Shown here piece by piece: positions 844-1,593 of a DNA stretch of 1,593 bases. Under the pieces are notes generated by a model. The model searched no databases, had not been told where the DNA came from, and worked only from the letters and a program-made list of their open reading frames with translations. The position numbers and the translations under genes were made by a program. The stretch comes from Escherichia coli. Its GTDB lineage: Bacteria; Pseudomonadota; Gammaproteobacteria; Enterobacterales; Enterobacteriaceae. How positions within the stretch are numbered: position 1 is the stretch's first letter; each line of letters opens with the position of its first letter. The stretch lies in assembly GCF_024223415.1 (NCBI RefSeq), contig NZ_CP100509.1; one strand, given 5' to 3'.

Positions 844-1593
844 ATGAAAAACCCTAAACTCCAGTACCTCACTGATTATTCCCCCTCTGACGCGCCCTGG
901 GACGCACACAGAAGCGTTTCTGACGACGTGGGAGGGATTTACCTGCTTGCGGCCGAATATGAGCGCTACGGGGCTCGTATGGCCTCCTGTGGCGGTTTAC
1001 TGCGTTTCGGGTGGTCTACCCTCAAGGAAACCGGAGAAACGCGTCTGAGGCTGCGTGAGGCGCATTTCTGCCGTGTCCGGCACTGTCCTGTCTGCCAGTG
1101 GAGGCGCTCCCTGATGTGGCAAGCCCGTTTCTACCAGTCCCTGCCGCGTATCGTGGCGGATTACCCTGATGCCCGCTGGATGTTCCTGACCCTGACCGTG
1201 CGCAACTGTGCGATTGGGGAACTGGGCGAGATGCTGAACCGGATGAATGCAGCTTTTCAGCGTATGAAGGTTCGCAAGGAGTTCCTGCCTGTTCAGGGCT
1301 GGATCCGCACAACGGAAGTTACCCGCGGCAGCGACGGCAGCGCGCATCCCCACTTCCACACCCTGATGATGGTGCCGCCCTCAATGCTATCTGGTGACGG
1401 GTACGTAAAACATGCTCGCTGGGTTGAACTCTGGCGGGAGTGCCTGCGGGTCAGTTACAACCCGAATGTTGATGTCCGGGCAGTAAAACCCCGTAAGCCA
1501 AAGGATGGCGAGTCCTTAGCCTGCGCGACCGCTGAACTGGTGCGCGGCGCAGTGGCCGAAACCCTGAAATATTCCACGAAGCCGGCTGACATG
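844..1593 (+). CDS. rep: Rolling-circle replication initiator Rep (HUH endonuclease, pC194/pUB110 Rep type); 5' part, no stop in window, continues in phase into 1..240 if the molecule is circular
   Basis: Open frame (codon starts = 1 mod 3) to the window edge. Translation contains FCRVRHCPVCQWRR (1066-1107), WMFLTLTVRN (1177-1206), the HUH motif HPHFHTLMMV (1345-1374) and the catalytic-Tyr motif ETLKYSTKP (Tyr codon 1570-1572). Order and spacing match pUB110 RepU / pC194 RepA as I recall them. ATG at 844-846 (845-847 in the sequence as I read it) is preceded by the SD-like GGGTGGTG. Other possible starts in the body frame are GTG 928 and ATG 979, both without a good SD. Confidence 0.9.
   Translation, partial: MKNPKLQYLTDYSPSDAPWDAHRSVSDDVGGIYLLAAEYERYGARMASCGGLLRFGWSTLKETGETRLRLREAHFCRVRHCPVCQWRRSLMWQARFYQSLPRIVADYPDARWMFLTLTVRNCAIGELGEMLNRMNAAFQRMKVRKEFLPVQGWIRTTEVTRGSDGSAHPHFHTLMMVPPSMLSGDGYVKHARWVELWRECLRVSYNPNVDVRAVKPRKPKDGESLACATAELVRGAVAETLKYSTKPADM

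Follow-up and report, generated by a model that had tools for sequence, protein, structure and literature searches.

A Rep_1-family replication initiator gene on a small cryptic ColpVC-type plasmid

We are nearly certain that positions 844 to 1593 joined to positions 1 to 237 of the DNA analyzed here (i.e., the window, meaning the whole stretch of 1593 bp) make up the whole of rep from a small, cryptic rolling-circle plasmid of enterobacteria (pB/ColpVC type), and that this gene encodes an HUH endonuclease of the Rep_1 family. This reading draws on profile matches, the identity of the joined product to a known initiator, and the alignment of its active-site residues with those of two characterized proteins (i.e., RepA of pC194 and RepU of pUB110). 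The coordinates of the features discussed below are collected in Table 1.

Table 1. Features of the 1593-bp window and the equivalent residues of the two prototype initiators
Feature	Window position	Strand	pUB110 RepU	pC194 RepA	Basis or remark
rep codons 1-250: N-terminal region, Cys4 element, HUH nuclease core	844..1593	+			Translation; Pfam Rep_1
rep codons 251-329 and TAG stop (238-240), acidic C-terminal part	1..240	+			Pfam Rep_1
Cys49, fourth invariant Cys of the Cys4 element	988-990	+	C56	C37	31 sequences
FCRVRHCPVCQWRR (aa 75-88)	1066-1107	+			Cys76, Cys81, Cys84 (C-x4-C-P-x-C-x-W-R)
FLTLTVRN (aa 114-121), Rep motif 1, HUH-fold beta strand	1183-1206	+			Translation; model strand 111-118
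Glu158	1315-1317	+	E163	E142	Column map; proposed metal coordination
HPHFH (aa 168-172)	1345-1359	+			H170-F171-H172 (1351-1359) is the HUH motif proper
His170/His172			H176/H178	H155/H157	Column map
ETLKYSTK (aa 239-246), with Glu239, Tyr243, Lys246	1558-1581	+			Translation; alignment column map
Glu239	1558-1560	+	E237	E210	Translation; column map; termination hydrolysis by equivalence
Tyr243	1570-1572	+	Y241	Y214	Translation; column map; nicking nucleophile by equivalence
Lys246	1579-1581	+	K244	K217	Translation; column map
Inverted repeat I2, hairpin, remnant of the pB 84-bp repeat	240-272	+			Begins on the final base of the TAG stop of rep
Candidate single-strand origin, highly structured noncoding DNA containing nested inverted repeats (I1, I3, I4)	326-479	+			Single-stranded DNA fold
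Candidate double-strand origin core TCCTTGTATTTATACTTAAGGGATAA, 26 nt	579-604	+ (rep strand)			240 bp upstream of the rep start codon

The rep gene, its family, and the ends of the window

The window (G+C content, 56.7%) contains a single long open reading frame (ORF), which starts in frame 1 with the ATG at position 844, directly preceded by GGTGGTG, and runs past the end of the window at position 1593. Residues 68 to 250 of its product (Rep) matched the Pfam family Rep_1 (PF01446) with an E value of 4.9e-67 over profile positions 2 to 180 of 253; the score was 226.5 bits, and the gathering score is 33.2. This was the sole Pfam match above threshold for the ORF, and a search of the NCBIfam profiles with Rep returned nothing above threshold. 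On the basis of the Rep_1 score, Rep is a member of the family of pC194/pUB110-type rolling-circle initiators, and no result ran counter to this assignment. The same membership had been proposed from four motifs in an earlier interpretation made from the letters without database searches (i.e., the sequence-only reading). All four motifs were found in one frame from the ATG, at precisely the positions that it had given. The pUB110 and pC194 counterparts that it had cited for the first motif were also right; the actual records translate to WFCKSRLCPMCNWRR and SCKNRFCPVCAWRK, respectively. The motif set in Rep is far beyond chance.

An ORF that leaves the window at position 1593 with no stop codon inside could be a truncated or decayed copy of rep, its motifs being relics. 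We consider this very improbable, since frame 1 resumes at window position 1 and reaches a stop codon at positions 238 to 240, and the two ends of the window are adjacent in the Salmonella Enteritidis plasmid pB (NC_005002.1; 1983 bp; ColpVC replicon), where a BLAST comparison against a doubled pB sequence placed window positions 1593 and 1 at the neighboring bases 833/834. The ORF at positions 1 to 240 matched Rep_1 as well (E = 2.8e-11; 43.8 bits; profile positions 182 to 252), and the coverage of the profile is contiguous (i.e., 2 to 180 and then 182 to 252, together spanning 2 to 252 of 253). The joined product is full length (329 aa) and 100% identical to WP_011117490.1, the pB protein named "protein rep." Apart from one deletion, which is described below, the window differs from pB at only four single bases (positions 6, 411, 449, and 477); the difference at position 6 is the sole one within rep, and it is silent. 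These alignments identify the window as a complete plasmid in circularly permuted form, with rep reading in frame across the junction. The gene is not truncated, since the opening of the circle that gives the window simply falls within rep; the sequence-only reading had in view the catalytic core of an intact gene.

Active site, predicted fold, and Cys4 element

Rep shows 32% identity with pUB110 RepU and 26% with pC194 RepA, and the catalytic columns of the two characterized proteins coincide with the motifs of Rep in the alignment. The E-x3-Y-x2-K motif was correctly read, in that the proposed nicking tyrosine (1570 to 1572) and its glutamate (1558 to 1560) fall in the columns of pC194 Y214 and E210. 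In pC194 RepA, Tyr214 is the attacking nucleophile at initiation, Glu210 promotes the hydrolysis step of termination, and Glu142 aids metal coordination (PMC5703833, citing Noirot-Gros et al. 1994). The equivalent of Glu142 (i.e., Glu158) is also present in Rep, as a third catalytic residue beyond those in the motif list of the sequence-only reading. The mapped residues (E158, H170, H172, E239, Y243, and K246) are invariant in an alignment of 31 sequences (26 to 96% identity), as are F114, L115, T116, T118, and N121 of Rep motif 1. The earlier designation of HPHFH as the HUH motif stands for H170-F-H172, both histidines of which are invariant, but not for H168, where the histidine is specific to the enterobacterial clade. 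Since H168 is replaced by Asn in both pC194 and pUB110, the HUH motif proper consists of H-F-H only. The residue equivalence to pC194 and pUB110 is established by this alignment, and the chemistry of Rep would be the same by homology.

The fold predicted for Rep is of the HUH-nuclease type, and the closest structural neighbor of the model is the Helitron transposase Helraiser (PDB 7lcc; identity, 11%). A sequence search of solved structures with Rep returned only chance matches (STING and TEF-1; E > 0.5), i.e., none of the Rep_1 family with a solved structure is detectable by sequence search. The metal and zinc sites of Rep therefore rest on prediction.

The Cys-rich element, previously described as a CPVC element, is present at positions 1066 to 1107 and is invariant, but it also includes a cysteine outside those coordinates (Cys49, which lies 27 residues upstream of Cys76). 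Within the element, C76, R79, C81, P82, C84, W86, and R87 are invariant in the 31-sequence alignment, and all four cysteines (C49, C76, C81, and C84) are kept in pC194 RepA and pUB110 RepU. In the AF2 model, Cys49 lies at the end of a helix and is followed by a beta hairpin (residues 52 to 59 and 66 to 73); Cys76 lies just past the hairpin, and Cys81-Pro-Val-Cys84 caps a long helix (residues 82 to 106). Zinc knuckles typically show this layout, and the modeled cysteines probably bind zinc. The Pfam family Zn_Tnp_IS91 matched residues 73 to 98 weakly, below its threshold (E = 0.002; 18.5 bits versus 26.3). We lean slightly toward the view that C49, C76, C81, and C84 form a zinc module that is common to all Rep_1 plasmid initiators and has its homologue in the zinc domain at the N terminus of IS91-type transposases. 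A literature search by titles and abstracts found no structure or biochemistry of such a zinc module in Rep_1. If the view is correct, the module would be an origin-recognition or strand-handling element of the Rep_1 family, and it would further tie rolling-circle plasmids to rolling-circle transposons.

The Zn_Tnp_IS91 match and the Helraiser neighbor could also be taken to mean that Rep is itself an HUH transposase of the IS91/ISCR or Helitron-like type, or a fragment of one, as could a weak match to the NCBIfam IS91 transposase profile NF033538 (E = 0.032; 13.3 bits). Both IS91 scores, however, are far under the curated cutoffs (26.3 for PF14319 and 125 for NF033538), compared with the 226.5 bits obtained for Rep_1. 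IS91-type transposases and Helitrons have a two-tyrosine active site, whereas that of Rep is E-x3-Y, as in pC194. Furthermore, Rep has no helicase domain, and rep is the only long ORF of a circular plasmid of 1.6 to 2.0 kb that hundreds of complete assemblies contain as an independent replicon. A transposase identity is, on these grounds, extremely unlikely. The proposal that Rep belongs to a single-stranded DNA phage or satellite, as an initiator of the phiX174 protein A or filamentous-phage gpII type, is scarcely credible. In its favor are two weak matches, one to Pfam REP_ORF2-G2P (E = 0.011) and one to PHROG 11698, a family of unknown function (E = 1.3e-8). Against it, the element is 1593 bp in its entirety and has no capsid or morphogenesis gene, the DNA matches listed are plasmid records of cultured enterobacteria, and Rep_1 alone among the Pfam families exceeds its threshold.

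Noncoding DNA and the proposed replication cycle

The noncoding stretch of the plasmid comprises 603 bp (positions 241 to 843). Within it, the 26-nt sequence TCCTTGTATTTATACTTAAGGGATAA is identical in ColpVC, Col(BS512), and Col(MP18) plasmids, while its flanks have diverged. It resembles the double-strand origin of pC194, CTTGATAATAAGGGTAACT (TCTTGATAATAAGGGTAACT), which is likewise on the rep strand upstream of rep. On the basis of this conservation and resemblance, positions 579 to 604 are likely to be the core of the double-strand origin. The candidate core has CTTGTAT and TAAGGGATAACT, whereas pC194 has CTTGATA and TAAGGGTAACT; thus, one heptamer and the spacing differ. The heptamer CTTGATA is found in both prototypes (i.e., pC194 and pUB110), and the spacing from CTTG to TAAGGG is 10 nt in the window core versus 4 nt in the prototypes. 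Folding of positions 555 to 625 gave no stable hairpin at the candidate core (z = +1.3), and no stable cruciform is therefore predicted there.

Two other parts of the noncoding DNA are much more structured than shuffled sequences when folded as single-stranded DNA: positions 320 to 485 (-38.5 kcal/mol; z = -4.19) and positions 610 to 790 (z = -3.55). The nested repeats at positions 326 to 479 make this stretch our candidate for the single-strand origin; more broadly, 326 to 479 and 610 to 790 are both candidates for a single-strand origin or for control elements. At permissive settings, Rfam detected no known antisense or control RNA family in the window; a subthreshold match of the hairpin at positions 230 to 280 to a plant miRNA was taken as chance. 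No sigma-70 promoter for rep emerged from a consensus scan, and a terminator scan returned two terminator-like sites, which is no more than shuffled sequences yield.

By analogy with the characterized initiators, replication may proceed as follows. Rep would bind at the candidate core of the double-strand origin, which lies upstream of rep, with a divalent metal held by His170, His172, and Glu158. Tyr243 would then attack the plus strand and become covalently joined to the 5' phosphate, and the free 3'-OH would be extended by a host helicase (UvrD in the case of pKYM) and DNA polymerase III. At the regenerated origin, Glu239 would activate a water molecule for hydrolysis, taking the place of the second tyrosine of phiX174 protein A. 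The released single-stranded circle would be converted to the duplex form from the structured single-strand origin, for which positions 326 to 479 are the candidate. The most likely role of C49, C76, C81, and C84 would be to bind a structural zinc ion, as part of an N-terminal module that aids DNA recognition.

The window is shorter than its nearest relatives (1981 to 1983 bp) by about 390 bp, and the missing part corresponds to pB positions 1099 to 1480. In pB, an 84-bp perfect inverted repeat occupies this region (arms at 1073 to 1156 and 1412 to 1495, with 255 bp between them). The deletion takes nearly all of the repeat together with the intervening 255 bp; of the two arms, only the outermost 26 nt of one and approximately 7 nt of the other are left in the window (I2 in Table 1). 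The deletion junction lies at about positions 258 to 265, at an imperfect 7-nt direct repeat (CCCTGAC/CCCCGAC). The 30-mer across the junction had no exact match in the collections of genomes or metagenome contigs, and the contiguous junction was present in none of the PLSDB records. The imperfect direct repeat at the end points points to a slipped-strand deletion across a long palindrome. The deletion may be a natural event of this kind, or it may be an artifact of amplification or assembly.

In conjugative plasmids of the I complex (IncK2/Z), the DNA directly preceding mobA and the MOBP relaxase gene is approximately 95% identical to each arm of the pB repeat. The arm contains CACATCCTGTCCC (CATCCTGTCCC), and we take CACATCCTGTCCC to match the oriT nick-region consensus. 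From its sequence, pB looks like a carrier of two inverted oriT-like copies, and it is typed as "mobilizable," in keeping with these oriT-like arms. In all, 1884 plasmid records contain the arm element; one of these is for an unrelated Col(MG828) plasmid of 1598 bp. With the oriT-like element lost, the plasmid represented by the window is predicted to be nonmobilizable by this route. The deletion also affects a 78-aa hypothetical protein of pB (WP_000263637.1; pB positions 1422 to 1658; window positions 265 to 435), the start of which lies within the deleted segment. In the window, this frame has a stop codon at positions 262 to 264 and no in-frame start codon afterwards. Since its start is deleted and its frame is stopped, WP_000263637.1 is either dispensable or no real gene.

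Distribution and comparison with known systems

Related DNA was found in 536 plasmid records of PLSDB, mostly from Escherichia, Klebsiella, Salmonella, and Shigella, and in 352 of 5426 complete E. coli genomes, where nearly all of the matches lie on plasmids. The matches to plasmids of these four genera agree with the proteobacterial host that the sequence-only reading had guessed. A protein search returned 4401 homologues of Rep; Rep_1 was present in all 120 of those listed, among which the source names, where given, are "protein rep," "Replication protein," or "plasmid rolling circle replication initiator protein Rep." A text search of the literature found "ColpVC" named in 290 papers. Rep has been annotated before; its family is well known, and plasmids of its type are very common. 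The gene serves as the replication initiator of very common tiny cryptic plasmids of E. coli, Salmonella, Klebsiella, and Shigella, a plasmid class that resistance-surveillance pipelines already type as ColpVC. RefSeq already lists this exact protein, and the finding amounts to a correct annotation of little wider importance, although Rep provides a clean case of the E-x3-Y active site beyond Gram-positive bacteria.

Motifs of the Gram-positive type in a proteobacterial host are no novelty, because enterobacterial Rep_1 rolling-circle plasmids have been known since pKYM of Shigella sonnei. For this plasmid of approximately 2 kb, rolling-circle replication has been shown experimentally (Yasukawa et al. 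1991), and replication is described as UvrD dependent, with HU used at a 173-bp plus origin (Yasukawa 1991 and 1997). pKYM is presumably equivalent to the Col(BS512)-type plasmids of Shigella and E. coli (2.1 kb), whose 26-nt origin core is the same as that of the window. Rep proteins of 320 to 321 aa from E. coli contigs of 2.1 to 2.4 kb are approximately 69 to 70% identical to the window Rep, among the homologues listed.

The closest known system is pB itself, which is 99.2 to 100% identical to the window over the shared 1585+ bp and has an identical origin core and gene order; the two differ in that pB is longer (1983 bp versus 1593 bp) by the segment absent from the window. At the other extreme, Helraiser and the IS91 family are transposases, the former with a fused helicase, and their sequence matches to Rep are below the family thresholds. 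The two staphylococcal prototypes lie between these. RepU of pUB110 (Staphylococcus aureus; the Rep_1 prototype) can be aligned with Rep from end to end, with the acidic C-terminal tail, every motif, and the four cysteines included, but it comes from a Gram-positive host of low G+C content and has Asn at the H168 position; its double-strand origin reads CTTGATACATATAG, versus CTTGTATTTATACTTAAGGG in the window. RepA of pC194 (S. aureus), the biochemically dissected member, shares the catalytic residues, the HUH motif, FLTLT, and the four cysteines, although at 229 aa it is without the approximately 80 C-terminal residues found in both the window Rep and RepU. The pC194 double-strand origin shares CTTG...TAAGGG(A)TAACT with the window, at the same place upstream of rep.
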